Of a stretch of 64,000 nt of DNA, positions 3,956-57,578 are shown piece by piece. This stretch comes from an uncultured Clostridia bacterium (GTDB lineage Bacteria; Bacillota; Clostridia; TANB77; CAG-508). Below the pieces are notes generated by a model that saw only the letters and a program-made list of their open reading frames with translations, was not told where the DNA came from and ran no database searches. Every line of letters begins with the position of its first letter. The first letter of the stretch is position 1. The DNA is taken from contig CALXPW010000001.1 of the NCBI GenBank assembly GCA_944390365.1, positions 57,907 through 121,906 on the forward strand. Direction: 5' to 3'. A program made the position numbers and the translations under genes.

Positions 3956-5128
3956 TTATCCAAATAATCCTCTCTTTTTAACAGGTGGTTGTTCATTCAT
4001 AGTTTTTGCAAGTTCTACCATTAAATCTCTTTGCTCTTTAGTAAGTTTCTTTGGAACTTGAACAAGTACAGTAAATACAAAGTTTCCTTGTGAGCCATTA
4101 TTTATATTCTTAAATCCTTTTCCTCGAATTGTAAACTTTGTTCCTGGCTGAGTTCCGTCTGGAATTCTATATATTTCCTTTGAGCCATCAACCATAGGTA
4201 TTTCCAAATCTGCTCCCAATGTAGCTTGTGTAAATGTTATTGGTACTTCACAAAGCACATCTTGACCTTTTCTTGTAAAGATGCTATGTCTTTTTATATG
4301 TATAGTTATATAAAGGTCTCCCTTGGCACCACCTTTTTCTCCTGGCTCTCCTTCGCATCTTAATACAATTGTTTGATTCTCATCAATACCTGCTGGAATC
4401 TTTACAGAAACACGCACTTGCTTTCTAACAATTCCTTTTCCCTTACACTCTACGCAAGGATCTGGAATAATTTCACCTGTTCCATTACAATTTGTACATG
4501 GTCTTACAGTTTGCATCTGTCCAAATATTGTTGTTTGTGTTTGCTTTATTTGACCAGTTCCATGGCACATTGAACACGTTTGCTTTTTAGTTCCAGGTCT
4601 TGCTCCTTCTCCATGACAAGTTGGGCAAGTTTCATTTCTTGTTAAATTTATCTGCTTTTCTGTTCCTAAAAAAGATTCTTCAAATGTAATATCCAAATTT
4701 GCTCTTAAATCAGCTCCCTGTTTTGGTCCGTTATTATGTCTAGTATTACTTCTTCCACCAAAGCCACCACTGAAAAATGAAGAGAAGATATCTCCTAAGT
4801 CGCCAAAATCACCAAATCCGTCAAATCCTCCTGAAGAGGAATATGAATAATAACCATTTCCTCCACCAAAAGGACCACCAGCTCCTCCTCCAAATCCTTG
4901 GCTTGGATCTGCTGTTCCAAATTGATCATACATTTTTCTTTTTTCAGGATTAGATAATACTTCATAAGCCTCATTTACTTCTTTAAACTTTGCCTCTGCT
5001 TCTTTTTTATTGTCTGGATTAGCATCTGGGTGATATTTTTTAGCAAGCTTTCTATATGCCTTTTTTAGTTCCTCATCGCTTACGTTTTTATCTACTCCCA
5101 ATATTTCATAATAATCCTTATTTGCCAT
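3956..5128 (-). CDS. dnaJ: Molecular chaperone DnaJ
   Basis: J-domain (YYEILGV...HPD), G/F-rich region and four CxxCxGxG zinc-finger repeats. The true start MANKDYY is at 5128 with a GGAGAG RBS; the ORF-track start at 5188 is an extension. Confidence 0.9.
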
Positions 5129-8972: not shown

Positions 8973-9049
8973 GCGCCCTTAGCTCAGTTGGTTAGAGCAA
9001 CCGGCTCATAACCGGTAGGTCCAAGGTTCGAATCCTTGAGGGCGCACCA
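8973..9049 (+). tRNA. tRNA with CAU anticodon (elongator tRNA-Met, or lysidine-modified tRNA-Ile2)
   Basis: Cloverleaf read by eye: acceptor stem GCGCCCT/AGGGCGC, anticodon loop CUCAUAA, T-loop GGTTCGAATCC, 3' CCA. G1-C72 is paired, so this is not an initiator. Confidence 0.85.
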
Positions 9050-9091
9050 TTTTTATTAAATAGATTTTTCTATTTAGTAAATTTATATTTT

Positions 9092-9177
9092 GGGTAGGTG
9101 GCCGAGTGGCTAAAGGCGGCAGACTGTAAATCTGTTCTCATTTGAGTACGATGGTTCGAATCCATCCCTGCCCACCA
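9092..9177 (+). tRNA. tRNA-Tyr (GUA) with long variable arm
   Basis: Acceptor stem GGGTAGG/CCTGCCC, anticodon loop CUGUAAA, long variable arm, T-loop GGTTCGAATCC, 3' CCA. Confidence 0.85.
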
Positions 9178-17924: not shown

Positions 17925-18073
17925 GCAAAGGATGTATATTTTAATTTTTTATTGGAGTGCTTAAGGTGGGGACCGACAAGTTTACAAACTGTTAAACGAA
18001 ACGCAAGTGAAGTTTTTACAGTTTGTACGCAGTTGGGGGCCGGAAATAAAAAATTAAAATATACATCCTTTGC
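17925..18073 (+). repeat. Palindromic repeat family 1, copy A (MITE-like, ~150 bp: diverged ~30-bp TIRs plus a conserved core)
   Basis: Left end GCAAAGGATGTATATTTTAATTTTTTATTGG, right end CCGGAAATAAAAAATTAAAATATACATCCTTTGC. Core GAGTGCTTAAGGTGGGGACCGACAAGTTTACAAACTGT-loop-ACAGTTTGTACGCAGTTGGGGGCCG. This core is shared with copies at 31141, 38123, 49543 and 57433. Confidence 0.85.
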
Positions 18074-24558: not shown

Positions 24559-24864
24559 TCTTTTACACCTCCTCATGGATATATAACCTATGAACTAGTC
24601 ATAAGTAAGGATTAAAAAATAGCAACGCTATTTTTTTAACGCTACTATTCTATCATCATTTTATAAAAAAATCAAGTATAATTTGGTAAATTTACATAAT
24701 CTTTTTTCTCTGAGTTGACACATTTTCAAAAATATAGTAATATACTATCTATAACTTTAAGAATAGCTTTACAAATAATAAAAATTTATAAAGAGAGGAG
24801 TTATCATTTTTTAACCAGAATTATATAAATATAGTAATTGTTTAAATAGATTTGGTTATTGTTT

Positions 24865-25050
24865 TAGCGCCTGGACATAGGGTATTTCTTTTAGTTTTAA
24901 CTAAAAATTTATTAAATTCACTATGTTGACGAGGTAGAGGCTTATCGAAAGATTCGGCGGATGGTCTCTTGGTACTAGATTACTACCACAAATATTAGTT
25001 AAAGCCTTGCAGTGATGCAAGTATACAAAGCTAATAGAGTAGTCTTTATT
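24865..25050 (+). ncRNA. glmS ribozyme: glmS ribozyme (GlcN6P-dependent self-cleaving riboswitch)
   Basis: A cleavage-site motif A|GCGCC is at 24865. The conserved core GTTGACGAGG-tAGAGG-CTTATCGAAAGATTCGGCGGATGGTCTC matches the B. subtilis glmS ribozyme core. It lies immediately upstream of glmS. Boundaries are approximate. Confidence 0.8.
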
Positions 25051-25127: not shown

Positions 25128-26981
25128 ATGTGTGGTATTGTAGGATACGTTGGTAGCAAAAAAGCTACACCTATACTAATTGATGGTCTTTTATGTTTGG
25201 AGTACAGAGGTTATGACTCTGCCGGAATTGCAACTATAGAGAAAGATGTAATTAAGGTTATGAAAGATAAAGGTAGAGTAAATAACTTGTATAATTTGGA
25301 AGGAATAAATGATTTAGAGGGAACTGTGGGTATTGCGCATACTAGATGGGCAACACACGGCAAACCATCTAAAGAAAATTCTCACCCTCATATGGATAAT
25401 AGCAATACATTTGCAGTTGTTCATAATGGTATTATCGAAAATTATTCTGAACTAAGAGATTTTTTAAGTTCTAAAGGATATAATTTTATCTCTCAAACAG
25501 ATACAGAGGTTATTCCTAACTTAATACATTATCATTATACAAACGGACCTGAATCTGTAATTGAGGATAATCACGAAAGAGTTTTAACTGCAGTAAAATC
25601 TGCTGTACAAGATTTAAAAGGAAGCTATGCAGTTGAGGTTATTTCCCCTCTATGCCCTGATGAGGTTATTGTGGTTAGAAAGGATAGTCCACTTGTTATA
25701 GGAAAGGGTACAGATGGAAATTATATAGCATCAGATATTCCTGCTATATTAAAGTACACTAAAGATTTTTATTTATTAGATGATAATGAATTTGCAGTAG
25801 TTACTGCTGATAAGGTTAAATTTTATGATAATAGCCTAACAGAGCATAACAAAGCAATTAAAAATATTGAATGGGATGCAAATGCAGCCGGAAAAGATGG
25901 ATATGAAGATTATATGCTTAAAGAAATTTTTGAGCAACCATCTGCTATAAGAGAAACAATCGGTTCAAGATTCCGTTTAGGAGAAAAATGTTCTTTTGAT
26001 GATATGGATATTTCTAAAGAGTATTTGAGCAAAGTAAATAAAATATACATTGTTGCTTGTGGTACAGCAATGCACGCTGGATTAGCTGGCAAAAATTTAA
26101 TAGAAAAACTTTGCAAAATTCCTACAGTGGTAGATATTGCATCAGAATTTAGATACAGAGACCCACTTATTGATGAAAATACACTTTGTATATATATAAG
26201 TCAGTCTGGTGAAACAGCTGACACCATTGCAGCTTTAAAACTTGCTAAATCTAAAGGTGCCAAAACCCTTGCAATTTCTAACGTTATTGGAAGCTCTATT
26301 ACAAGAGAGGCAGACTATTCTATTTACACTCACGCAGGCCCAGAAATTGCTGTTGCATCTACAAAGGCATATACTTCACAAGTTGTTCTGCTTGCAATTC
26401 TCGCAATGCATTTTGCTGAAATATTAGGAACTTGTGATGCAGCTTGTATAGAAAGCTTGAAATCTGACTTGATAGATTTACCATCTAAAGTAGAGCAAAT
26501 ATTAGACAACATAGATATAGTTAAAGCTTTTGCAGAAAAAGTATATACAGAAAAAGATATGTTCTTTTTAGGCAGAGGCACAGATTATAATGTTGCATTA
26601 GAGGGATCTTTAAAATTAAAAGAAATATCTTACATCCATTCAGAAGCTTATGCTGCAGGTGAATTAAAGCACGGCCCAATAGCACTTATCGAAAATGGTG
26701 TAACAGTTGTAGGTATTATTACAGACGACAAATTGGTTGAAAAATCTATTAGCAACATTCAAGAAGTTGTTACAAGAGGAGCAAAAACTTTAATTATTAC
26801 AAATCAAATATTACCTAACAGTCACTTTGATTACGTAATAAATATTCCAAAAACTAATCCTCTAATTTCACCAATACTTTCTGTTGTACCAATGCAACTT
26901 TTGTCTTACTATATTGCTAAGGCTAAAGGATTAGATGTAGATAAACCACGTAATCTTGCGAAATCTGTTACAGTAGAGTAG
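25128..26981 (+). CDS. glmS: Glutamine--fructose-6-phosphate aminotransferase
   Basis: N-terminal MCGIVGY (Ntn amidotransferase), two SIS domains and the C-terminal ...AKSVTVE. 617 aa. Confidence 0.95.
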   Translation: MCGIVGYVGSKKATPILIDGLLCLEYRGYDSAGIATIEKDVIKVMKDKGRVNNLYNLEGINDLEGTVGIAHTRWATHGKPSKENSHPHMDNSNTFAVVHNGIIENYSELRDFLSSKGYNFISQTDTEVIPNLIHYHYTNGPESVIEDNHERVLTAVKSAVQDLKGSYAVEVISPLCPDEVIVVRKDSPLVIGKGTDGNYIASDIPAILKYTKDFYLLDDNEFAVVTADKVKFYDNSLTEHNKAIKNIEWDANAAGKDGYEDYMLKEIFEQPSAIRETIGSRFRLGEKCSFDDMDISKEYLSKVNKIYIVACGTAMHAGLAGKNLIEKLCKIPTVVDIASEFRYRDPLIDENTLCIYISQSGETADTIAALKLAKSKGAKTLAISNVIGSSITREADYSIYTHAGPEIAVASTKAYTSQVVLLAILAMHFAEILGTCDAACIESLKSDLIDLPSKVEQILDNIDIVKAFAEKVYTEKDMFFLGRGTDYNVALEGSLKLKEISYIHSEAYAAGELKHGPIALIENGVTVVGIITDDKLVEKSISNIQEVVTRGAKTLIITNQILPNSHFDYVINIPKTNPLISPILSVVPMQLLSYYIAKAKGLDVDKPRNLAKSVTVE

Positions 26982-29054: not shown

Positions 29055-30341
29055 ATGATAGACATTAAATTTTTAAGAGAGAATCCAGATGCAGTTAAAG
29101 AAAACATCAAGAAAAAATTTCAAAACCATAAACTAGTTTTGGTTGATGAAGTTTTAGAGCTTGACAAGAAGAACAGAGATGCAAAACTTGCAGGCGATGA
29201 TTTACGTATGAAAAGAAATTCTTTAAGTTCTGAAATAGGTAACCTAATGAAAAACGGAAAAAAGGACGAAGCTGAAAAGATAAAAGCTGAAGTTCAAGAA
29301 ATAAATAAAAAACTTGAAGAAAATGAAAAATTAGAAGCTGAATATTCTAGCCAAATAACAGAAAGAATGATGAAAATCCCAAATATGATTCACGAATCTG
29401 TTCCTATTGGCGAAGATGATAGCAAAAATGTAGAAATAGAAAAATTTGGAGAGCCAGTAGTTCCAGATTATGAAATTCCATATCATGCAGACATAATGGA
29501 AAGTTTTAATGGTTTAGACTTAGACTCTGCACGTAGAGTTGCAGGAAATGGATTTTACTATCTAATGGGAGATATTGCAAGACTTCATTCTGCAATTTTA
29601 TCTTATGCAAGAGACTTTATGATAAATAAAGGCTTTACTTATTGTGTGCCACCTTTCATGATTCGTAGCGATGTTGTTACAGGTGTTATGAGTTTTGAAG
29701 AAATGGATGCAATGATGTATAAAATAGAAGGTGAAGACTTATATTTAATTGGAACTAGTGAGCATTCTATGATAGGAAAATTTAAAGGACAAATTCTAAA
29801 AAAAGAGGATATGCCATATACTATGACTTCTTATTCTCCATGTTTTAGAAAGGAAAAAGGAGCACATGGTATAGAAGAACGTGGCGTTTACCGTATACAT
29901 CAATTTGAAAAACAAGAAATGATAGTTGTATGTGAGCCAGAAGATAGTTGGAAATGGTATGACAAGTTATGGTCATATACAGTAGAACTATTTAGAAGTA
30001 TGGATATACCTGTTAGAACACTTGAATGTTGCAGTGGTGACCTAGCAGACTTAAAAGCTAAAAGTTGTGATGTTGAAGCTTGGAGCCCAAGACAAAAGAA
30101 ATATTTTGAGGTTGGAAGTTGCTCTAACTTAACAGATGCACAAGCAAGACGTTTAGGAATTAGAATTAAAGGCGAAAAAGGCAACTACTATGCACATACT
30201 TTAAACAATACTGTAGTTGCTCCACCACGTATGCTAATTGCTTTCTTAGAGAACAATTATAATGAAGATGGTAGTGTAAATATACCAGAAGTACTTCGTC
30301 CATATATGGGTGGAACAGAAAAATTAGTACCAAAAAAATAG
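29055..30341 (+). CDS. serS: Serine--tRNA ligase
   Basis: An N-terminal coiled-coil arm followed by the class II core. The start is MIDIKFLRENPD at 29055 with a GGAGG RBS. Confidence 0.95.
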   Translation: MIDIKFLRENPDAVKENIKKKFQNHKLVLVDEVLELDKKNRDAKLAGDDLRMKRNSLSSEIGNLMKNGKKDEAEKIKAEVQEINKKLEENEKLEAEYSSQITERMMKIPNMIHESVPIGEDDSKNVEIEKFGEPVVPDYEIPYHADIMESFNGLDLDSARRVAGNGFYYLMGDIARLHSAILSYARDFMINKGFTYCVPPFMIRSDVVTGVMSFEEMDAMMYKIEGEDLYLIGTSEHSMIGKFKGQILKKEDMPYTMTSYSPCFRKEKGAHGIEERGVYRIHQFEKQEMIVVCEPEDSWKWYDKLWSYTVELFRSMDIPVRTLECCSGDLADLKAKSCDVEAWSPRQKKYFEVGSCSNLTDAQARRLGIRIKGEKGNYYAHTLNNTVVAPPRMLIAFLENNYNEDGSVNIPEVLRPYMGGTEKLVPKK

Positions 30342-30349
30342 CAGAGTGC

Positions 30350-30390
30350 GTGGACAAGAGGGACTACTGCCTTTTGTCCACACTTTTGCT
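30350..30390 (+). terminator. serS terminator; copy 1 of the GTGGACAA...TTGTCCAC hairpin
   Basis: GTGGACAAGAGGGACTACTGCCTTTTGTCCAC followed by ACTTTTGCTT. A near-identical hairpin occurs at 50948..50979. Confidence 0.6.
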
Positions 30391-30522
30391 TAACTTTCTT
30401 TATAATAATAAGATAATAGTTAAATTTGTGGACAATAGTAAGGAGTTAGTTTAAATTGAAAGAAATTCTTCATTACAATGTGTGCTTTTAAAGCAAAATA
30501 CGAGAAAGGAATGAAATTTAAG

Positions 30523-31104
30523 ATGATAATTAAAAATCCAGAATTTAAGATTTCTGCAGTTAGTCCTAAGCAATATCCAAATGATGGTTTACCTCAAATT
30601 GTTTTAGTTGGTAAATCTAATGTAGGTAAGTCTTCTTTTATAAATACTATGGTAAATAGGAAAAAACTTGCTAGAACAAGTAGTGAGCCCGGAAAAACTA
30701 GACAAATAAATTTTTATAGTATGGATAACAAGTTTTATTTTGTAGATTTACCCGGATACGGCTATAGTAAGATGTCTAAAGAGGAGCAAGTTCGTGTTGG
30801 TAGCTTTATAGAGGAGTATTTAAGCAAATGCCAAAATATTGCTTTAATAATATTCTTAATTGATATTAGGCATTCTCCAACAGAAAATGATAGGCTAATG
30901 TATAATTATGTTATAAATGCAAATAAGCCTTGCATAATTATAGCAAATAAGGCAGATAAAATTGCTGTAACTAAGGTAGATGCACAAGTTAAAGCTTTGC
31001 AAGATGAACTAAATCCACTAAAAGATTTTACCTTTTTACCATTTTCAGCAGAAAGACGCATTTACAGTGAGAAAGTTTGGGAAGAAATCGAGAAATTTAT
31101 TTAG
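30523..31104 (+). CDS. engB: Ribosome-biogenesis GTPase EngB/YsxC (YihA)
   Basis: GKSNVGKSSFIN (G1), DLPGYGY and NKADK motifs. The start is chosen at MIIKNPEF by alignment with B. subtilis YsxC; ATG 30511 or 30478 remain possible. Confidence 0.85.
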   Translation: MIIKNPEFKISAVSPKQYPNDGLPQIVLVGKSNVGKSSFINTMVNRKKLARTSSEPGKTRQINFYSMDNKFYFVDLPGYGYSKMSKEEQVRVGSFIEEYLSKCQNIALIIFLIDIRHSPTENDRLMYNYVINANKPCIIIANKADKIAVTKVDAQVKALQDELNPLKDFTFLPFSAERRIYSEKVWEEIEKFI

Positions 31105-31140
31105 TTCTTAATTTGTTGTATTATGTAAGTCTTATAGCGA

Positions 31141-31279
31141 GCAAAGTAGGCTTAAAATTTTTCTTTGAGTGCTTAGGGTTGGCACCAAAAAGCATACAAA
31201 GTGTTTAACGAACGTTAGTGAGTTAATACAATTTGTGCGATGTTGGGGGCCGAAAAGAAAAATTTTAAGCCTACTTTGC
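31141..31279 (+). repeat. Palindromic repeat family 1, copy B (more diverged)
   Basis: TIRs GCAAAGTAGGCTTAAAATTTTTCTTTG / CAAAGAAAAATTTTAAGCCTACTTTGC. Degenerate core GAGTGCTTAGGGTTGGCACC...ACAATTTGTGCGATGTTGGGGGCCG. Confidence 0.75.
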
Positions 31280-31329
31280 TTGTTTAGTATATTTTTTATG
31301 TAAATTTATTGACTTTACCAGCTTTTTGT

Positions 31330-31358
31330 ACTATAATATATGTTATCAGGTTTTATAC
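31330..31358 (+). promoter_or_regulatory. Near-consensus sigma-A promoter (TTGACT-N17-TATAAT) for the GC-rich small ORF
   Basis: ttgactttaccagctttttgtactataat, followed ~20 nt later by AAGGGAGG and ATG 31389. Confidence 0.6.
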
Positions 31359-31388
31359 TTGAAATAATAATAAGGGAGGCCATACATT

Positions 31389-31634
31389 ATGGCAAAAAAA
31401 CCTACGTTCGCATTTTTGTTCCCCAGTGTGGAAGCTGCAGAGGATTTCCTCAAGTACGCTAGTGCGCACATGAAATCTTCTCTGGCACAGCACCCTGTCA
31501 ACAACTCCGTTGTTGATAAAAAGCGGGTCCTCGTAAGCGGTACTGGTAGCAACGTCTATGACTGGCAGATGAGATGCGAGCTCGTAGAGTACGCAAGATC
31601 CCTTGGTGGGGATGTTGTTCCTAAGCATGTCTAA
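31389..31634 (+). CDS. Hypothetical 81-aa protein in a GC-rich island
   Basis: MAKKPTFAFLFPSVEAAEDFLKY...GGDVVPKHV. The ORF has a consensus promoter, an AAGGGAGG RBS and a clean terminator. GC here is about twice the local background. Overlapping antisense ORFs exist only because of the high GC. No family recognised. Confidence 0.5.
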   Translation: MAKKPTFAFLFPSVEAAEDFLKYASAHMKSSLAQHPVNNSVVDKKRVLVSGTGSNVYDWQMRCELVEYARSLGGDVVPKHV

Positions 31635-31665
31635 AGCGCTTAGTAACTAGTCCTACCGCAAACTA

Positions 31666-31697
31666 CCGGGAGTCCACTGGACTCCCGGTTTCTTTTA
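31666..31697 (+). terminator. Rho-independent terminator (CCGGGAGTCCA-CTGGACTCCCGG + TTTCTTTT)
   Basis: A perfect 11-bp GC-rich stem followed by a T-tract. Confidence 0.8.
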
Positions 31698-31737
31698 TTT
31701 ATGTACTTTTTTACTTCTCTTTATTTTTATATACTAT

Positions 31738-31938
31738 TTAATTTTCAGTATCTTTCTCTTCTTTTTCCACTTTTCTTACTATCATCTTAAGGGCTTTTGG
31801 TCTTTCCAGCATTATTGTATGTCCACAACCAAGGCACTTTAATTTAAAGTCTACACCTACCCTAGTAATTTCCCATAACTTACTTCCACAAGGATGTTGT
31901 TTTTTAGTTCTTACTACATCTCCTACATTGTATTCCAT
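31738..31938 (-). CDS. DUF951-family small protein
   Basis: 66 aa with the pattern GDVV..KK.HPCGS..WEI.R.G.D.K.KCLGCG..IM..R. Confidence 0.55.
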   Translation of the reverse strand: MEYNVGDVVRTKKQHPCGSKLWEITRVGVDFKLKCLGCGHTIMLERPKALKMIVRKVEKEEKDTEN

Positions 31939-32024
31939 TACCAGTCCTCCATTTACCTCTTTATTAAAAATATGTATGTTTACCTATTAAAAATAAACAT
32001 ACATACTAATTTTATTAAATCCTA

Positions 32025-33674
32025 TTATCTCATTGCCCTTTCTAAACGTTTTGTCACTACTTCTTTTCCTAGCACTTGCATTATTTCGTACATATCTGGA
32101 GTATTTGTTCTTCCTGTTAAAGCTACTCTTAAAACTGTACTTACATCTCCAACATGTGCTTTGTATGCATCTGGGTTTGCTTTGTATTCCTTTACTTCTT
32201 TTGCATAGCCTAATTCCCCTGCTAATTCCTTTATTCTGTCAAACCATGCTTGCTTATCGTCTTTTTCATTATAATACTTGTCTATGTACAATTTTAAAAT
32301 TTTATTTATTTCTTCTTTATCATTTATTACTTGGTATGGATATTCCATATCTTTATTAGAGAAAAGAGCATCATACATATATTCTATATTATACATTACG
32401 TCAGACCATTTTGATATGTCTTTTCTAGGCTTTTTATTTCCTCTTTCTATTCCAAATACTTTTAGAGCATAATCTTTATCTTCTAAAACTTTCTCTAATT
32501 CTTTATCATATTCTTGTGCCCATTTAAATGAGTTTTCGTATACTTCTTCAGCTGTCATTCTAGATATTACTGTTTTTCCTATATCCAGTAATTTAACCAT
32601 GTCAAATAAAGCACCACTTACACTCATTTTGTTTAATTGAAAATCAAATTCGTCTAAAGATTTATCTGGATTTGCTCTTCTCCAATTTTCAAATGTAGAG
32701 TTTGCTATATTCAAAAGATATTCTTTTACAGCATCTACTGGTATTCCCTCTTCTTTGTAATAGCTTACTGCTGCTTCTGGGTCTTTTCTTTTACTTAGTT
32801 TACGTTTATTTCCATTATCATTTTTCATTATTGGTGAAATATGTGCATACTTAGGTGCTTTAAATCCTAGCTCGTGGAATAATTGTAAATGTAAAGGAAC
32901 AGATGATAGCCACTCATCACTACGTATTACAAGTGTTGTTCTCATTAAATGGTCATCTACTGCATGCGCAAAATGGTATGTTGGAAGGCCATCTGCTTTT
33001 ATTATAACTATGTCTTGGTCATTTTCTGGAAAATCTACATTTCCTTTTATTAAATCGTGATGTTTTATTTTTCTGTCTTCTCTGCCTGGAGATTTAAAAC
33101 GAATGATGTAATTTTCTCCATTTTTTATTTTTTCTGCTGCCTCTTCTACACTTAAGTTTCTACATTTTGCCCATACGCCATAATATCCTGTCCTTACTTT
33201 GGCACTTTCTTGTTTTTTTCTTGTTTCTTCTAACTCCTCTGTAGTACAAAAGCATGGATATGCTTTTCCTTGCTCTAACATATATTTTGCATAAGATTGG
33301 TATATTTCTTTTCTTAAAGATTGTTTATATGGTCCATAATTTCCCTTTTCTTCAGTTTCTGTAACCATACCTTCATCTGGTAATATATCAAAATCTTTTA
33401 AAGAATTTACTATTCCTGTAACACCATTTTCTACTTCTCTTTTTTGGTCTGTATCTTCTACTCTTAAGAAAAATACACCGCCTGTTTTTTTAGTCATCTC
33501 TTTTGCAACTAAGGCTTGGTATAGTCCACCAATATGCACAAATCCTGTTGGGCTTGGTGCAAATCTAGACACAACTGCTCCTTCAGGCAAATTTCTTTCT
33601 GGATATTTTTCTTCGTAGTATGAAATGTCCTTTGCGTCTGGAAATATTAAATCTGCTAAGTCTTTATAATTCAT
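32025..33674 (-). CDS. gltX: Glutamate--tRNA ligase
   Basis: Class I: RFAPSPTGFVHIGG (a HIGH variant) and KLSKRK (KMSKS). 549 aa. Confidence 0.9.
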   Translation of the reverse strand: MNYKDLADLIFPDAKDISYYEEKYPERNLPEGAVVSRFAPSPTGFVHIGGLYQALVAKEMTKKTGGVFFLRVEDTDQKREVENGVTGIVNSLKDFDILPDEGMVTETEEKGNYGPYKQSLRKEIYQSYAKYMLEQGKAYPCFCTTEELEETRKKQESAKVRTGYYGVWAKCRNLSVEEAAEKIKNGENYIIRFKSPGREDRKIKHHDLIKGNVDFPENDQDIVIIKADGLPTYHFAHAVDDHLMRTTLVIRSDEWLSSVPLHLQLFHELGFKAPKYAHISPIMKNDNGNKRKLSKRKDPEAAVSYYKEEGIPVDAVKEYLLNIANSTFENWRRANPDKSLDEFDFQLNKMSVSGALFDMVKLLDIGKTVISRMTAEEVYENSFKWAQEYDKELEKVLEDKDYALKVFGIERGNKKPRKDISKWSDVMYNIEYMYDALFSNKDMEYPYQVINDKEEINKILKLYIDKYYNEKDDKQAWFDRIKELAGELGYAKEVKEYKANPDAYKAHVGDVSTVLRVALTGRTNTPDMYEIMQVLGKEVVTKRLERAMR

Positions 33675-33860
33675 AAATCTCCCTCTCTTTTTTATGTGAA
33701 CAAAAAGGATTGTTCCTTTAGTTCGTTGCTTAAAAATTTCTTGTATATTATATATTATTTTTTAGTAATTTACAATAGTAATATTTTTATTTTTCTATTT
33801 ACATAATTGATTATTTATAGTAAAATATATTTGCACTATAAGTTAAAGGAGAACTAAATC

Positions 33861-34598
33861 ATGAAGCAGACTTTGTATATAAACATTGATGATTCTGGAA
33901 AACTAGTAGATACCGAAAAGGTTGCTATTTATGCAGGATTAGTCTTTACATCTAAAAAAGAAAAAGATAGATTTATTACTCAATATCGCAGTATCGTACA
34001 AAATATAAAATGTAAATATTGCAACCAGAATATTGCGATTTGTAGAAGTAATAAATCCTGCCCTGAATTAAAACATAATATGTTAAAAGCTAAACATAAT
34101 AGGCAACTTATGAATTATATCAAAAAATATTCCACAATATGTTGTATAATAAATAATGATAAAGTATATCCAAATATAAAAGCAGATACTGCTTCTAGAG
34201 GTAGATTTTTAGATTATTCACTAAAGTTGTTAATAAAGCAAGTGATAAAGAATATGATTAGAGAAAAGAAAATAAATCCAGATTTACCAATTAAATTAGT
34301 AATAAATATTGATGAGCAAACAACTAAAACTAATGGATATTATAATCTACGAGATGGCATTATTGAAGAATTAAAATACGGGATTTTTAATTACAATTAT
34401 AGTTATTTTAATACACCAATAGTAAATTCTGATTTAGAAGTAGATGTTTGCTATCAAAAATCTGAAAAAAGTTACCTAATTCAAGCATCTGACTTAGTAG
34501 CAGGAACAGTTCGTAGACTTTACCTAAATAATACAAATAATCTATTAGAATTTTCAAAAAGAATAGAGTTCATAAATTATAAAATTTTTTTACCATAA
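33861..34598 (+). CDS. DUF3800-family protein
   Basis: N-terminal LYINIDDSGK and C-terminal LIQASDLVAGTVRR are the two hallmarks of DUF3800. It is a single plus-strand gene between minus-strand gltX and rnj. Confidence 0.65.
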   Translation: MKQTLYINIDDSGKLVDTEKVAIYAGLVFTSKKEKDRFITQYRSIVQNIKCKYCNQNIAICRSNKSCPELKHNMLKAKHNRQLMNYIKKYSTICCIINNDKVYPNIKADTASRGRFLDYSLKLLIKQVIKNMIREKKINPDLPIKLVINIDEQTTKTNGYYNLRDGIIEELKYGIFNYNYSYFNTPIVNSDLEVDVCYQKSEKSYLIQASDLVAGTVRRLYLNNTNNLLEFSKRIEFINYKIFLP

Positions 34599-34617
34599 AA
34601 TCTATATAGTAAATGAA

Positions 34618-34641
34618 AAGAGGCTACTTAAGTAGCCTCTT
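34618..34641. terminator. Perfect palindrome AAGAGGCTACTT/AAGTAGCCTCTT after the DUF3800 gene (possible bidirectional terminator)
   Basis: A 24-bp perfect inverted repeat. The T-tract is weak on the plus strand and modest on the minus strand. Confidence 0.4.
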
Positions 34642-34825
34642 CCCAACTAGACTGACGTACTTAACATACGCTTAATTATTTAAAATCAGTATCTAGCTAT
34701 CGACCGAACAAAGGTATATTGCCTTCTGGTATAATAATTGTAACATCTTGAGAAAAAAATGTCAACAATTATATCTTTATTTTATTCAAAAAATGAAAAA
34801 ATATTCTTCTACTACAACAAAAATT

Positions 34826-38091: not shown

Positions 38092-38122
38092 TTTTTTATC
38101 ATCCCTTTCTACAAAAAATTTA

Positions 38123-38272
38123 GCAAATAATGTATGTTTAAAATTTTTATTGGAGTTCTTAAGGTGGGGACCGACAAGTTTACAAACTGTAAAATTAAGC
38201 GTTAGCGAAAATTTATACAGTTTGTACGTAGTTGGGGGCCGACAATAAAAATTTAAAACATACATTATTTGC
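38123..38272 (+). repeat. Palindromic repeat family 1, copy C
   Basis: TIRs GCAAATAATGTATGTTTAAAATTTTTATTGG / CCGACAATAAAAATTTAAAACATACATTATTTGC. Core GAGTTCTTAAGGTGGGGACCGACAAGTTTACAAACTGT...ACAGTTTGTACGTAGTTGGGGGCCG. Confidence 0.85.
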
Positions 38273-38286
38273 TTTTTTTATAAATA

Positions 38287-39642
38287 TTATATTGGCAAAT
38301 CTACCGCGTCAAATAGCCATGTACCCATATATAATTGTATACATGGAACTATAATTACGATAACTAGGAATATTAAGAATATACCAACTATAGAATATAC
38401 TACTTGTGGTAATACCGCCATAACTTTTTGCATTAAGTTGTTTATATCCATTTCCATATATTCTACTATTTTCCTCATCATTTCTGGTAAGTCTGTTTGC
38501 ATACCTATTTTTAACATTTCTGTTTGCATTGATGAGCAAAGTCCAGAATTTTCAAATGGTTCTATCCAAGATGCACCAATTAATATATTGTTTATTGCTG
38601 TTTCAATAATTGAAAGTAGTACATAGTTTTTAACAACCGCCTTACTAACTTCTAATGATTCCTGAATTCTCATTCCATTTTCTAGGTTTAATAGCATTGC
38701 TCTCATAAGTCTTGAAAAGTCCATTGCAAATATCAATTTTCCGAAAATCGGCATTTTATATTTAAAATAATGAAAATTATATTTTCCTTTTGGTGTATTT
38801 ACATATAGCACTACAAGACCTGTGACTATTGCAATCATAATTACTGGTATATACCAAACATTAATAAATCCATTACAAAAATCAACAAACCATAATGTTA
38901 TTTCTGGCAATGTTTCTGTTGTCCCTGCATCTGAGAAAGCATCTTGTATCATTGGAATAATATATGCAACACCAAAAATTAAAATTGCAATTATTGCCAA
39001 TAATTGTAGTACATTTGGTATTATAATTTTTCTTAATCTATTACCTGTTGTATCTACGTCCTCAAGATATTTAACTGCTTGTTCTAATGATTTTGTTAGC
39101 GATCCTGATAATTCTCCAACTCTTATCATATTCGTATAAATATAAGGAAATATATTTGAATAGTATTCCATTGTTGTATACATGTATTCTCCGGATTCAA
39201 CTCCAGCTAAAATATCCTGTAAAACTCCTCTTAACGAAAGATTCTCTGTACTATCAATAATAGTACTTAGTGCATGTATATTATTGAAGTTTGCCTTTTT
39301 TAATAAATAAAAGTTTTGTGTAAATATTACAATATCTCTTGTAGTTATTTTTTCATCTCTTGATAATGCTAAATTTACTCTTTCCTTTAATGAAGGTTTT
39401 GTTCTTTCTCTACCTTGCATTATATTAGCAGAATCAGCTTGTTTCATAATATCATCGATATCCATTATATTTCTTCTGTTTGCTTTAGCTTTTCTGCTTT
39501 TATAACCAACTTGTATAATGCTTATAGGAAGTAAATCATTATTTTTTAGCTTTTTTACGAGATTGTTTTTGTTTACATCCTCTACTCTATTTCGCACGAT
39601 CTGTCCTTTTGACGTTACTGCTCTATAAATATATTCTGGCAT
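38287..39642 (-). CDS. pilC: Type IV pilus assembly platform protein PilC (GspF family)
   Basis: 451 aa, polytopic membrane protein with T2SS-F repeats. It is the last gene of the pilus cluster. Confidence 0.8.
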   Translation of the reverse strand: MPEYIYRAVTSKGQIVRNRVEDVNKNNLVKKLKNNDLLPISIIQVGYKSRKAKANRRNIMDIDDIMKQADSANIMQGRERTKPSLKERVNLALSRDEKITTRDIVIFTQNFYLLKKANFNNIHALSTIIDSTENLSLRGVLQDILAGVESGEYMYTTMEYYSNIFPYIYTNMIRVGELSGSLTKSLEQAVKYLEDVDTTGNRLRKIIIPNVLQLLAIIAILIFGVAYIIPMIQDAFSDAGTTETLPEITLWFVDFCNGFINVWYIPVIMIAIVTGLVVLYVNTPKGKYNFHYFKYKMPIFGKLIFAMDFSRLMRAMLLNLENGMRIQESLEVSKAVVKNYVLLSIIETAINNILIGASWIEPFENSGLCSSMQTEMLKIGMQTDLPEMMRKIVEYMEMDINNLMQKVMAVLPQVVYSIVGIFLIFLVIVIIVPCIQLYMGTWLFDAVDLPI

Positions 39643-49542: not shown

Positions 49543-49695
49543 AAGACCGGGCAAAGTATGTATTTTTTACTTTTGGTTGAAGTTCTTAAGGTGGGGACCG
49601 ACAAGCTTACAAACTGTAAAACGAAGTTTGTACAGTTTGTGCGATGTTGGGGGAACGTAAACCAAAAGTAAAAAATACATACTTTGCCCGGTCTT
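49543..49695 (+). repeat. Palindromic repeat family 1, copy D (perfect 36-bp TIRs, shortened loop)
   Basis: AAGACCGGGCAAAGTATGTATTTTTTACTTTTGGTT and its exact reverse complement flank the core GAAGTTCTTAAGGTGGGGACCGACAAGCTTACAAACTGT...ACAGTTTGTGCGATGTTGGGGGAACG. Confidence 0.85.
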
Positions 49696-52126: not shown

Positions 52127-52552
52127 TTATCGCTGTATCAGTATTGTAATTGAGTCTAGAATGAACTTCTTAAAGTTCTGCCATTTCTGGCAAATCTCTT
52201 TCCATTCCTCCTTTGCCATTGCGTCTTGCCTTAGCTCCTCACGGTATGCCTGAGGATCGTCTTCAACTGTTGTTTGGTCCTCTTTTTTCTCCTCTGCCAC
52301 CTCATAGATTGGCTCTGCCTCATATACCTCTTCGGTATATGCAGAATCTCCAATCTTGGTCGGAGCTTCGTAGTAAGCTGCCTCGCCGATTTCAGTCAGT
52401 CTTTCGTAGGAGATTGCCTCTCCTATCATTGTTGGAGCTTCTGCATATGCAGTTGCTCCACAAGCGAAGCTCACACTGAACAGTGTAATTGCCATTATCA
52501 AAATGGTCAACACCTTTTTTGCGAAGAGCTTCCGTTTTTCGTCTTTTCTCAT
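52127..52552 (-). CDS. Small acidic secreted protein with internal EAPTxIG repeats, in a GC-rich island
   Basis: Signal peptide with an AYA cleavage site. Glu/Ala/Tyr-rich mature part. AGGAGG lies 8 nt upstream of the ATG. The 5' UTR holds the perfect inverted repeat CTAAGTGGAA-ct-TTCCACTTAG. The locus is markedly GC-rich relative to its flanks. Confidence 0.5.
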   Translation of the reverse strand: MRKDEKRKLFAKKVLTILIMAITLFSVSFACGATAYAEAPTMIGEAISYERLTEIGEAAYYEAPTKIGDSAYTEEVYEAEPIYEVAEEKKEDQTTVEDDPQAYREELRQDAMAKEEWKEICQKWQNFKKFILDSITILIQR

Positions 52553-57432: not shown

Positions 57433-57578
57433 AAAATTATATGTATTTTATTTTTTGTCGGAGTGCTTAAGGTGGGGACCGACAAGTTTACAAACTGTTG
57501 AACTGAATGTTAGTGAAGTTTATACAGTTTGTACGATGTTGGGGGCCGGAGACCAAAAAGAAAATACATATAATTTTG
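57433..57578 (+). repeat. Palindromic repeat family 1, copy E, nested inside an outer perfect 28-bp inverted repeat (57384..57411 / 57601..57627)
   Basis: Core GAGTGCTTAAGGTGGGGACCGACAAGTTTACAAACTGT...ACAGTTTGTACGATGTTGGGGGCCG. Outer arms GCAAAAGGGGACGGGTTTATTTTGTAAA / TTACAAAATAAACCCGTCCCCTTTTGC. Confidence 0.85.

Follow-up and report, generated by a model that had tools for sequence, protein, structure and literature searches.

An A-depleted, GC-rich island between engB and gltX in AT-rich Clostridia DNA: a candidate exchangeable cassette for a polymorphic small protein

Introduction

What sort of gene keeps nearly half of its bases as G or C when the DNA on both sides is about 30% G+C, and why should it sit between two housekeeping genes? 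A preliminary description of the window (the whole 64-kb stretch of DNA analysed here, from an uncultured Clostridia bacterium) had picked out such an island, judged its 81-codon open reading frame (ORF) to be a well-signalled gene for a protein of no recognisable family, and put its codon usage down to either very high expression or acquisition from a GC-richer donor. The reading that we prefer, with a probability of about 0.6, is that the island is a self-contained module, which would provide a constitutively expressed and stabilised mRNA for a polymorphic small protein.

Results

Organisation of the locus

Viewed in 200-nt windows, the GC content climbs to 0.50 (31400–31599) and 0.49 (31500–31699) against 0.29–0.32 on either side, and the ORF itself stands at 0.488 against 0.295 for the whole window, in agreement with the contrast first described. 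The ORF (31389..31634, forward strand) translates into 81 amino acids exactly as quoted there; we refer to the protein and its gene family as ‘X’. Gene order—serS, engB (MMR_HSR1), X, then DUF951 and gltX, both on the reverse strand—confirms that X occupies a core position between engB and gltX. The promoter, ribosome-binding site, start-codon hairpin and GC-clamped terminator claimed for the gene are likewise all present, and stand with a conserved 3′-UTR box in the following order:

31309..31337 (+), sigma-A-type promoter, predicted: TTGACT (31309–31314), 17-nt spacer, TATAAT (31332–31337); scan score 11/12
31346..31362 (+), 5′-terminal stem-loop, predicted: UCAGGU / ACUUGA, 6 bp, about 1–3 nt from the inferred transcription start site (TSS)
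31372..31379 (+), extended Shine-Dalgarno (SD) sequence AAGGGAGG, read from the sequence, 9 nt 5′ of the AUG
31379..31393 (+), start-codon hairpin GCCAUA-CAU-UAUGGC, all three AUG bases paired; dG −6.7 kcal/mol
31389..31634 (+), X coding sequence (CDS) including the stop codon, 81 aa, assigned from its substitution pattern, family and AF2 model; the variable body of the cassette
31655..31664 (+), conserved 3′-UTR box ACCGCAAACT, directly 5′ of the terminator
31665..31699 (+), intrinsic terminator, from a terminator scan: 11-bp stem with 8 GC pairs (31665–31689), then the T tract TTTCTTTT

The predicted promoter is the top-scoring site of the region in our promoter scan (11/12), and the 5′ hairpin begins 9 nt past the −10 hexamer, equivalent to 1–3 nt from the usual TSS position. 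Within the 64-kb window the terminator has no second copy and we find no other X cassettes; an antisense ORF is also open. Adjoining the promoter on its 5′ side, as reported, is a palindromic element with perfect 27-nt arms (31140–31166 and 31254–31280). Related genomes carry homologues of the gene at the engB locus, the repeat is missing from L001–L003 and diverged copies of it occur elsewhere in the window; we regard it as a separate insertion and find no support for a link between repeat and gene.

The ORF evolves as a protein-coding gene

Substitutions at codon positions 1/2/3 number 14/11/39, with some 39–40 of 64–66 falling on position 3; dN/dS lies between 0.08 and 0.15 across comparisons (0.13–0.15 for those with the counts just given, about 0.13 at 39/64), and the L003 allele carries a 15-nt in-frame deletion. 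Judged by its substitutions, X is under purifying selection as a protein. This coding pattern, together with a conserved family and a confidently modelled fold, upholds the initial view that the ORF is a real gene.

An undescribed family with a predicted ferredoxin-like fold

A single-sequence, word-indexed search yielded only four relatives; an exhaustive profile search over 1.84 billion representatives extended the family to 51 members (E<1e-3), mostly of 73–91 aa, none of which bears a name in the sources searched; another round of profile searching brought in none with a name either. Scans of X and 34 family members against Pfam, NCBIfam, PHROGs and PADLOC produced only sub-threshold matches confined to single members—RraB (E=0.0016), NuiA_2 (E=0.077) and PDC-S04—sequence profiles of the PDB gave only chance matches to galectin-10, and a literature search for X found nothing specific. 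The preliminary description was thus right to leave the protein without a family: X belongs to a previously undescribed one, found so far only in low-GC gut or unlabelled metagenome contigs and in metagenome-assembled genomes of uncultured Clostridia. All of the homologues’ contigs that were read consist of 27–34% GC DNA, and no homologue outside low-GC contexts was found among those examined. For L008 orf74, homology to the family is undetectable (hhalign probability 0.6%).

The family is marked by the motifs KKPTF.F.F, (A/V)QHP and VLVTGTGS..(F/Y)D...LGG, its conserved residues occupying core and turn positions and the remaining positions being variable. The AF2 model of X (pLDDT 86.7) has the order beta-alpha-beta-beta-alpha-beta, and X lacks a signal peptide; we describe X, some 80 aa long, as cytoplasmic, and on this confident model predict for it a ferredoxin-like fold. 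Foldseek comparison with the PDB and BFVD finds nothing beyond ferredoxin-like folds of a generic kind and phage proteins without a name; the fold matches have a TM of about 0.6, an identity of 8–15% and an E never below 2.5e-3. The conserved LGG is followed by 3–13 variable residues, which are modelled as strand beta4; a double-glycine leader, RiPP or pheromone precursor is rejected, as no exporter or maturation gene is found in any locus.

HMA and ACT domains share the secondary-structure order and size of X; HMA domains are its top PDB matches (TM 0.56–0.62), within a wider group of HMA, de novo ferredoxin and S6 permutant structures (TM 0.56–0.66). X is nevertheless not assigned as an HMA domain: the GMxCxxC motif is missing, the beta1–alpha1 loop reading F-P-S/T-x-E instead; its only cysteine, C63, is not conserved; and none of the 34 members has a Pfam HMA or ACT match. 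Domains of the HMA/ACT type bind ligands at the N-termini of their helices. In the model of X, the conserved FPS/T...E and GTGS...D loops would likewise be found where the two helices have their N-terminal ends, on outer surfaces that are otherwise variable. Such a placement would suit a small module for binding or regulation, with a partner that varies from strain to strain. To judge by the fused and tandem forms described below, X probably works as a dimer.

A cassette that differs between near-identical genomes

The hypervariability of X becomes visible only when other genomes are compared. Between the window and L014, EngB is 98.4% identical at the amino-acid level and X just 46%, and both the palindromic repeat and the DNA downstream match at 100%; between the window and L002 the figures are 99.5% for EngB, 98.4% for GltX and 78% for X, with a dS of 1.25 for X against 0.09–0.19 for its neighbours. 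Overall, dS is 1.2–2.8 in X and 0.03–0.19 in the flanks, and genomes whose EngB proteins are 98–100% identical carry X alleles sharing 78% or 46% identity. A 1.9-Mb contig bears the 78% allele together with one of the 208-aa EngB calls that are 100% identical to the EngB of the window. The extreme case is L008 versus L012, where flanks of 97–99% identity extend over 3.9 and 3.7 kb, the 101-nt leader is 100% identical and the CDSs have no nucleotide similarity.

The borders of the variable segment are sharp. Promoter and leader are conserved in all three comparisons with near-identical flanks, and the terminator is common to two of the three, differing between L008 and L012. In the window, L001–L003, L013 and L014 the terminator stem is the same or differs by at most 1 nt despite divergent CDSs; other lineages have different, equally strong stems. 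Identity with other alleles restarts at the 3′-UTR box, which we take as the right edge: its CACCGCAAACTACCGGG is identical in L001–L003, and the L014 version, CACCACAAACTACCGGG, has a single mismatch even though L014 X is only 46% identical. The locus occurs as a single cassette, a tandem pair (L008, L018) or a fused double (L012), the second half of the fusion being homologous to the family with an hhalign probability of 88%. From these comparisons the X CDS appears as an exchangeable promoter-to-terminator cassette between otherwise near-identical genomes.

Each type is internally well represented: 179 contigs carry a protein identical to the window allele and another allele cluster has 26 members, many of the supporting contigs being short and of low coverage. 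The locus also breaks metagenome assemblies, leaving most carrier contigs below 2 kb, and X is for this reason easy to miss. We judge assembly chimerism unlikely as the source of the hypervariability, since assemblies made independently show the same arrangements—in L008 and L009 and in L002 and L003, these replicates agreeing, and in nine contigs for the L014 allele—and on the long contigs L008 and L012 the replacement is flanked by kilobases.

Strain-specific alleles of this kind bring to mind an arms race, in which X would be a tag for self-recognition or an orphan protein of the immunity or inhibitor type. We think this function unlikely. It would account for the upkeep of strain-specific alleles and for their constitutive expression, and it accords with deeply divergent allele types, each internally conserved, in near-identical backgrounds; with a small cytoplasmic alpha/beta-fold protein that varies outside its core and turn positions; and with the weak single-member matches to RraB and NuiA_2, both inhibitors of nucleases. 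Those matches are, however, the sub-threshold ones noted above, dN/dS is low, and of the marks of polymorphic-toxin immunity X has the strain-variable small cytoplasmic protein and neither an adjacent toxin nor membership of a known immunity family. X has as its neighbours serS, engB, DUF951, gltX and rnj, or else glyS and ppdK; in none of the loci examined does it adjoin a gene for a toxin, secretion or defence, PADLOC gives three single-member chance matches only, and the loci examined hold no adjoining co-varying receptor, processing enzyme or transporter.

Silent sites are depleted of A on the sense strand

The ORF departs from its surroundings at every codon position. Its GC1/GC2/GC3 values are 0.57/0.38/0.53, where the 41 ORFs of at least 150 aa in the window average 0.42/0.30/0.17 (GC3 sd 0.03, maximum 0.26), putting the GC3 of X some 12 sd from the mean. 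At third positions the change is directional. A3 is 0.17 in the window gene, and across 14 X genes the mean A3, C3, G3 and T3 are 0.18, 0.26, 0.23 and 0.33, against 0.47, 0.07, 0.10 and 0.36 in 14 flanking genes; the ranges for A3, C3 and G3 are fully separate (p=7e-6 each), with no difference in T3 (p=0.24). Four-fold sites have A at 0.58 in the flanks and 0.20 in X, and T at 0.36 in both, with C and G taking the place of A. The same A-to-C/G shift is seen in a distant family member at a second locus (L021, glyS-X-ppdK). A-poor silent sites are a strand-specific trait of the family, kept in every relative examined; and it is this that argues against recent import, ordinary expression bias and biased gene conversion as causes.

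Import from a GC-richer donor, with the host composition not yet reached and the alleles representing separate arrivals, was one of the two explanations first offered, and we now consider it quite unlikely. Foreign composition at all three codon positions, the replacement of alleles between close genomes and a GC3 that ranges from 0.35 to 0.63 between alleles are what it would lead one to expect. Set against this, the anomaly is present in 14 of 14 homologues, spanning EngB identities of 81–100%, and again at the second locus; it has not eroded between alleles whose synonymous sites are saturated (dS >1); only A3 is depleted with T3 at the host value, which symmetric amelioration does not predict; the promoter, leader and terminator are of host type; and all homologues whose contigs were read lie in 27–34% GC DNA, the 1.84 billion representatives containing just the 51 unnamed relatives.

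The other suggestion, that very high expression has shaped the codons through ordinary translational selection, is in our view very unlikely. The consensus promoter and strong SD speak for it, as does the enrichment in X of C-ending codons for Phe, His, Asn, Tyr and Cys and of GGT, GCT and ACT; here the codon bias originally reported is real, although it accounts for only part of the signal, G-ending and otherwise near-unused codons contributing as much. G3 rises to 0.23–0.24 from 0.09–0.10, as large a rise as that of C-ending codons; CAG makes up 85% of its pair in X against 5% in the flanks and AAG 61% against 19%, with GAG at 52% in X; CTC and CTG together supply 52% of Leu codons against ~0%; and CTC, CTG, CGG, TCC, TCG, CCC and GTC, at 0.00–0.02 in flanking genes, are used freely. 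The window contains no ribosomal-protein genes that could serve as a reference for a codon adaptation index; dnaK, which does lie in the window and can reasonably stand in for a highly expressed gene, has a GC3 of 0.12 and an A3 of 0.54.

GC-biased gene conversion at a recombination hot spot has the attraction of a single neutral cause for both GC-richness and hypervariability, the locus clearly recombining or exchanging and its 3′ UTR also being relatively GC-rich. But gene conversion of this sort is strand-symmetric, whereas the loss at four-fold sites affects A and leaves T unchanged; the conserved ends, at which crossovers should take place, are AT-rich, and the asymmetry recurs in the distant member at the other locus. 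We rate it a shade below translational selection.

Targeted hypermutation, whether adenine-specific and akin to a diversity-generating retroelement (DGR) or associated with transcription, could in principle yield A-depletion and fast divergence together, and the sense-strand bias, the limitation of variability to the transcribed body and the conserved GC-rich hairpin at the 3′ edge are in keeping with it. It is nonetheless highly improbable, and X is rejected as a DGR target: between L001 and L002, A takes part in 13 changes and is absent from 10 others (C/T 5, G/T 4, C/G 1); alleles differ by indels, and L008 and L012 lack nucleotide similarity altogether; blastn of the transcript against the 64-kb window returns only itself, leaving no template copy; there is no reverse transcriptase among the called neighbours; and divergence is not clock-like relative to the flanks.

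Finally, GC-rich islands in AT-rich genomes are mostly RNA genes, and the near-equimolar composition, a transcript fold z-score of −5.7 against dinucleotide shuffles, the strong promoter and terminator and the open antisense ORF would all suit a structured non-coding RNA with a spurious ORF, a view essentially refuted by the codon-position-3 bias (39/64), the dN/dS of ~0.13, the in-frame indel, the 51 relatives recovered by protein profile, the lack of an Rfam match either at 31300–31700 (nothing at gathering score; relaxing to E<=10 brings up only miRNA and snoRNA matches due to chance, far under threshold) or at nine homologous loci, and the lack of shared CDS structure (RNAalifold energy 0.0, z 0.16 against synonymous shuffles in a codon-aware alignment of 12 alleles).

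What the sense-strand purge of A does produce, across the family, is a near-equimolar and more strongly folding X mRNA. The minimum free energy per nt of the CDS is −0.23 to −0.39 in X genes and −0.11 to −0.24 in controls. Folding beyond that due to composition is modest: synonymous-permutation z-scores are negative in 10 of 10 X genes (mean −2.4), and overlap with those of 13 controls (−0.69±1.35). As no specific CDS structure is conserved, the extra folding could be a by-product of GC-richness; across alleles, only the leader hairpin, the AUG hairpin and the terminator are conserved structures.

Expression signals across the family

The signals that bracket the CDS are kept to a much greater degree. 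All ten family genes put through the promoter scan score 11/12, nine with TTGACT, a 17–18 nt spacer and TATAAT, and L008 orf74 with TTGACA-17-TATACT; by eye, the promoter is also present in L016–L018 and L020, L015 has TTAACT as its −35 element and in L019 a −35 is not evident. A GC-rich terminator is kept in every gene examined, and the 5′ hairpin and strong SD (GGAAGGAGG or AAGGAGG in relatives) in most. RNAalifold recovers the 5′ stem-loop from 13 leaders, with compensatory changes in three of six pairs, and other lineages have different stems in the same 5′ place (CCGTGCT/AGCATGG, CACGTT/AACGTG, TATACGC/GCGTATA).

A hairpin enclosing the whole AUG (−4.5 to −7.9) is predicted in 10 of 15 family genes, where the AUG-pairing of 26 control genes averages −0.26 and never falls below −2.0 (p=4e-5). 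Changes in codon 2 are matched by changes in the upstream arm (GCC..AUGGC, GGAC..AUGUCC, GACC..UGGUC). The hairpin is lacking in the other five genes, at least one of which (L018b) probably has a miscalled start.

Discussion

A proposed module for a long-lived mRNA

Taken as one module, these features would serve strong constitutive transcription and a long-lived mRNA. We envisage that the 5′ stem-loop and strong SD would block decay that depends on the 5′ end, that the body, structured and poor in A, would present few single-stranded stretches rich in A/U for cleavage, and that the 3′ hairpin would hold off 3′ exonucleases; the AUG hairpin may temper or gate initiation. The divergent alleles would be old types kept in the population, and homologous recombination in the conserved ends or immediately beyond them would carry them from strain to strain. 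Both ‘strongly expressed’ and ‘stable’ are readings of sequence signals. Codons near-absent elsewhere (CTC, CTG, CGG, TCC, CCC) are used in X, which speaks against strong expression, such codons normally hindering high-level translation; and with its low dN/dS, X shows no direct sign of diversifying selection.

A bolder version would join the two halves of the story: X as a strain-recognition or immunity module whose A-purged, folded mRNA withstands an A/U-directed ribonuclease that destroys AT-rich transcripts, where the ribonuclease could be an incoming toxin, a toxin–antitoxin interferase or the cell’s own decay machinery under stress. We hold this to be a long shot; if true, the composition of the X mRNA would itself be an adaptive defence trait, tied to the role of the protein.

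Comparison with known systems

The ermC and aprE leaders carry 5′-terminal stem-loops, and the cry3A mRNA of Bacillus thuringiensis a STAB-SD. X resembles these 5′-stabilised mRNAs in its predicted stem-loop near the inferred 5′ end, its extended and highly complementary SD and its 3′ hairpin, and differs in that the SD is a functional ribosome-binding site followed by a hairpin sequestering the AUG, stability here being a prediction. To our knowledge, an A-depleted, GC-enriched coding body has not been described for mRNAs of this type.

In its population behaviour X is closer to comQXP, the agr pherotype loci and orphan immunity genes, whose polymorphic types are exchanged via conserved flanks. 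Shared with comQXP and agr are divergent and internally conserved types, near-identical backgrounds, sharp boundaries and synonymous divergence at least 10-fold over the flanks; unlike them, X is a single cytoplasmic 80-aa protein with no signal peptide and an invariant promoter.

SR1/SR1P and RNAIII/hld are dual-function RNAs, both coding and regulatory, and X likewise is a short structured RNA of ~350 nt with its own promoter and terminator and a small protein. Unlike in those RNAs, the structure and sequence of the X body are not conserved and the protein is, with no pointer to a base-pairing target. An integron cassette can be set aside, each X cassette having its own consensus promoter and no integrase being found among the neighbours.

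Significance of the locus

X is a clear natural example of selection or bias that acts over the long term on the synonymous sites of one strand, against strong genomic AT pressure, the sites turning over (dS >1) while the composition holds; a role for mRNA composition in AT-rich Firmicutes is thus testable by recoding one 243-nt gene. More broadly, a housekeeping slot between engB and DUF951-gltX in gut-metagenome Clostridia hosts a plug-and-play cassette with a deeply polymorphic payload, the expression signals of which are for the most part kept (the promoter in all genes examined, with TTAACT as the −35 of L015 and no evident −35 in L019). Retained signals around a polymorphic payload usually mark self/non-self recognition, immunity or phage conflict; at the loci examined, no partner gene for X is visible. 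The promoter–leader–terminator set also constitutes a ready-made, evolution-tested expression module for low-GC anaerobes.

The X locus and its coding status

Working along the interval between engB and gltX, we find a gene for an 81-aa protein (here X, for gene and product alike; homologous loci from other contigs and genomes are L001–L021) that is an undescribed small-protein cassette, anomalous in composition and hypervariable, whose expression module is largely retained; among kinds already known, the locus resembles polymorphic cassette loci and stabilised mRNAs. As in the preliminary description, the ORF occupies a GC-rich island (GC peaking at 0.50 at 31400–31599 in 200-nt windows, against ~0.30 on both sides), translates to the 81-aa product first quoted, and is surrounded by a consensus promoter, ribosome-binding site, start-codon hairpin and GC-rich terminator. 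The gene order is serS, engB, X, then DUF951 and gltX, both on the minus strand.

Features of the X locus (window coordinates)
31309–31337, +, promoter TTGACT-17-TATAAT, 11/12, best-scoring site of the region
31372–31379, +, Shine–Dalgarno sequence (SD), AAGGGAGG
31379–31393, +, AUG-pairing hairpin, -6.7 kcal/mol
31389–31634, +, X ORF
31665–31689, +, terminator, 11-bp GC-rich stem

X is a real protein gene, as indicated by its substitution pattern, its 51 relatives, a confident structural model and the lack of a common RNA structure in the coding sequence (codon-aware alignment of 12 alleles). Against L001–L003, with which the protein shares 78–79% identity, codon positions 1/2/3 take 14/11/39 substitutions, dN/dS is 0.13–0.15 at a dS of ~1.3, and a 15-nt deletion in L003 is in frame. 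The alternative raised initially, a structured RNA of a known Rfam family with a spurious ORF, fails on this coding pattern, on the existence of a protein family, and on the absence of Rfam matches both in the island (at gathering score or E<=10) and in nine homologous loci.

Protein family and predicted fold

Searched exhaustively with a profile, 1.84 billion representative proteins yielded 51 relatives at E<1e-3 (18 below 1e-10), most of them 73–91 aa long and sharing the motif KKPTF.F.F...A..F...A....(A/V)QHP....D..RVLVTGTGS..(F/Y)D..L...L...A..LGG. The contigs read, which derive from metagenome assemblies (gut or unlabelled) and two uncultured Clostridia MAGs, are all low-GC (27–34%). The family is new, none described matching it, in keeping with the cautious initial view: the window protein has no match in Pfam, NCBIfam, PHROGs or PADLOC, 34 family members give only scattered sub-threshold hits there, PDB sequence profiles give chance matches only, and public sources attach no name to any member.

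AlphaFold with the family alignment models X at pLDDT 86.7 in the order beta-alpha-beta-beta-alpha-beta. Structure searches return generic ferredoxin-like domains (HMA, de novo designs, S6; TM ~0.6, identity 8–15%), although the metal motif of HMA is absent from the family. The protein is probably a dimer, and the conserved loops that follow beta1 (FPS/T..E) and beta3 (GTGS...D) may form a pocket at the two helix N-termini, around which the surfaces would be otherwise variable. It is attractive to see X as an immunity, inhibitor or recognition protein in an arms race, but no partner gene was seen.

Strand-specific depletion of A

The X ORF is an extreme outlier in the window, with a GC3 of 0.53 against 0.17±0.03 (maximum 0.26) for 41 long ORFs. 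This anomaly is a family-wide, strand-specific trait: GC3 is 0.35–0.63 in 14 family genes of different lineages and 0.12–0.26 in their neighbours, and the same shift is seen in the distant member L021, at a different locus (glyS-X-ppdK).

Third-position base frequencies, X against flanking genes (n=14 each)
A, 0.18 against 0.47, ranges without overlap
C, 0.26 against 0.07, ranges without overlap
G, 0.23 against 0.10, ranges without overlap
T, 0.33 against 0.36, not different (p=0.24)

The frequency of A at four-fold sites is 0.20 in X genes and 0.58 in flanking ones, with T at 0.36 in both. Neither cause first proposed, very high expression or a GC-richer donor, finds support. Ordinary translational selection is ruled against by the strand-specific shift, by the G-ending codons gained (CAG 85% against 5%, AAG 61% against 19%), by use of CTC, CTG, CGG, TCC, CCC and GTC, which neighbouring genes essentially never use, and by a GC3 of 0.12 in dnaK. 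GC-biased gene conversion and simple amelioration of a GC-rich import are strand-symmetric, whereas X loses A and keeps T. A recent cause is disfavoured because inter-allele dS exceeds 1.

The resulting mRNA is near-equimolar (A 0.27, C 0.23, G 0.23, U 0.27) and, per nucleotide, its folding is about twice as strong as that of the coding sequence nearby. Synonymous-codon arrangement adds modest structure (z negative in 10/10 X genes, mean -2.4; -0.69±1.35 in 13 control genes), and selection would appear to act on how the mRNA is composed and how far it folds, not on one specific structure.

Genes for aminoacyl-tRNA synthetases are neighbours of X in both contexts: serS and gltX in the window (29055–33674), and the glycyl-tRNA synthetase gene in L021 (4482–9830), where a YbaK-type tRNA_edit gene lies two genes downstream. 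This adjacency may be coincidence, but is notable given the unusual codon usage of X.

A second GC-rich island at 52127–52552 (-; GC up to 0.49) carries a 141-aa ORF with a hydrophobic segment at the N-terminus, EAPT(M/K)IG repeats, no Pfam match, and, in order, TATAAT, leader hairpins, a strong SD and a GC-rich terminator. Its GC3 is 0.46 with T3 (0.18), not A3 (0.36), depleted; thus at least one further gene of this genome escapes AT-rich codon usage, differently from X.

A conserved expression module

The module of promoter, leader, AUG-hairpin and terminator is conserved. The promoter scores 11/12 in 10/10 family-locus genes tested, nine having TTGACT, a 17–18-nt spacer and TATAAT, and the tenth, a 74-aa ORF in L008, TTGACA-17-TATACT; at further loci it is mostly visible by eye (the -35 of L015 is TTAACT, and L019 is without an evident -35). 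At the inferred 5' end, ~9 nt past the -10 hexamer, begins a stem-loop whose sequence changes between lineages with pairing retained (recovered by RNAalifold, with compensatory changes in 3/6 pairs), followed by an extended SD. A hairpin pairing the whole AUG is present in 10/15 genes (-4.5 to -7.9 kcal/mol, against a mean of -0.26 in 26 control genes; p=4e-5), its codon 2 covarying with the upstream arm (GCC...AUGGC, GGAC...AUGUCC, GACC...UGGUC). A strong GC-rich terminator ends the module.

In Gram-positive bacteria, 5'-terminal stem-loops and strong SDs protect mRNAs from 5'-end-dependent decay, as 3' hairpins do from exonucleases. Given these roles, we infer from the sequence signals that X mRNA is probably transcribed strongly and constitutively, stabilised and long-lived.

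Replacement of cassettes between genomes

X cassettes are replaced between genomes, within otherwise closely matching flanks.

Pairwise comparison of loci
Window and L002: EngB 99.5%, GltX 98.4% aa, flank dS 0.09–0.19; X 78% aa, dS 1.25
Window and L014: EngB 98.4% aa, engB dS 0.10; X 46% aa, dS 2.75; palindromic repeat and post-terminator DNA 100% identical
L008 and L012: flanks 97–99% nt over 3.9 and 3.7 kb, promoter-leader (101 nt) 100% identical; CDSs without nucleotide similarity

Between the window and L014, divergence starts in the promoter spacer and stops ~10 nt ahead of the terminator stem. Across loci, X identity saturates at 33–51% regardless of EngB identity (81–99%), so divergence is not clock-like. 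Each allele type is nonetheless conserved and common: the window protein is unchanged in 179 contigs, and the 78% type lies on a 1.9-Mb contig with a 208-aa EngB 100% identical to the window's. Cassette number also varies. L008 has two, one of which is the 74-aa ORF (4577–4801; GC3 0.36), whose leader and terminator are similar but for which homology to the X family could not be detected; in L012 a single 150-aa ORF (4001–4453) fuses two domains, and hhalign relates its second half to the family with a probability of 88%; and L018 has two tandem family genes, each with its own promoter (the second at 919–1203).

The simplest account is that old allele types, or paralogous cassettes, are exchanged by homologous recombination; arrays would grow or shrink via the repeated leader and terminator sequences, and a frequency-dependent or partner-specific advantage may maintain the allele types. 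Assembly chimerism is unlikely, since equal arrangements recur in independent assemblies. A DGR-like process is excluded by a substitution spectrum that is not adenine-specific and the absence of a second copy of X from the window.

L004 (954–1190, equivalent to window 31340–31634) carries the window-type allele minus 55 nt (window 31396–31450), joining an upstream out-of-frame ORF to X as protein P0003; a genuine disruption would point to X being dispensable, the alternative being an error in a 2.6x-coverage assembly. X-bearing contigs are mostly <2.5 kb (L004, L005, L007, L011, L013–L020), and those encoding proteins P0006 (14/14) and P0013 (9/9) are all <2 kb, even though contigs with the neighbouring engB reach 1.9 Mb; a strain-variable locus at which assembly graphs break would fit this pattern.

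The palindromic element and other window features

Copies of the palindromic element
31140–31280, beside the island, perfect 27-nt arms (31140–31166 and 31254–31280) 87 nt apart
38121–38292, 57452–57548, 17940–18058 and 49571–49653, diverged copies (73–81% identity)

The X module and the element are unrelated; the latter is a MITE-like insertion, being absent from the equivalent intergenic region of L001–L003, identical in L014 and present in copies elsewhere, with further matches inside L004 and L005.

The interval from gltX to the RNase J gene (33700–34800) holds a DUF3800 gene (33861–34598, +) and a DUF3800-I RNA (34607–34737, -; 64.8 bits). In L002 some 110 nt separate the blastn hits of these two flanking genes, and the called genes of L003, L006 and L008 are separated by 26–300 nt; the stretch looks like a ~1.1-kb insertion in the window genome. 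The glmS ribozyme (24855–25046, 87 bits), upstream of glmS (25128–26981), and two tRNA genes (8973–9174) are ordinary and correctly placed.
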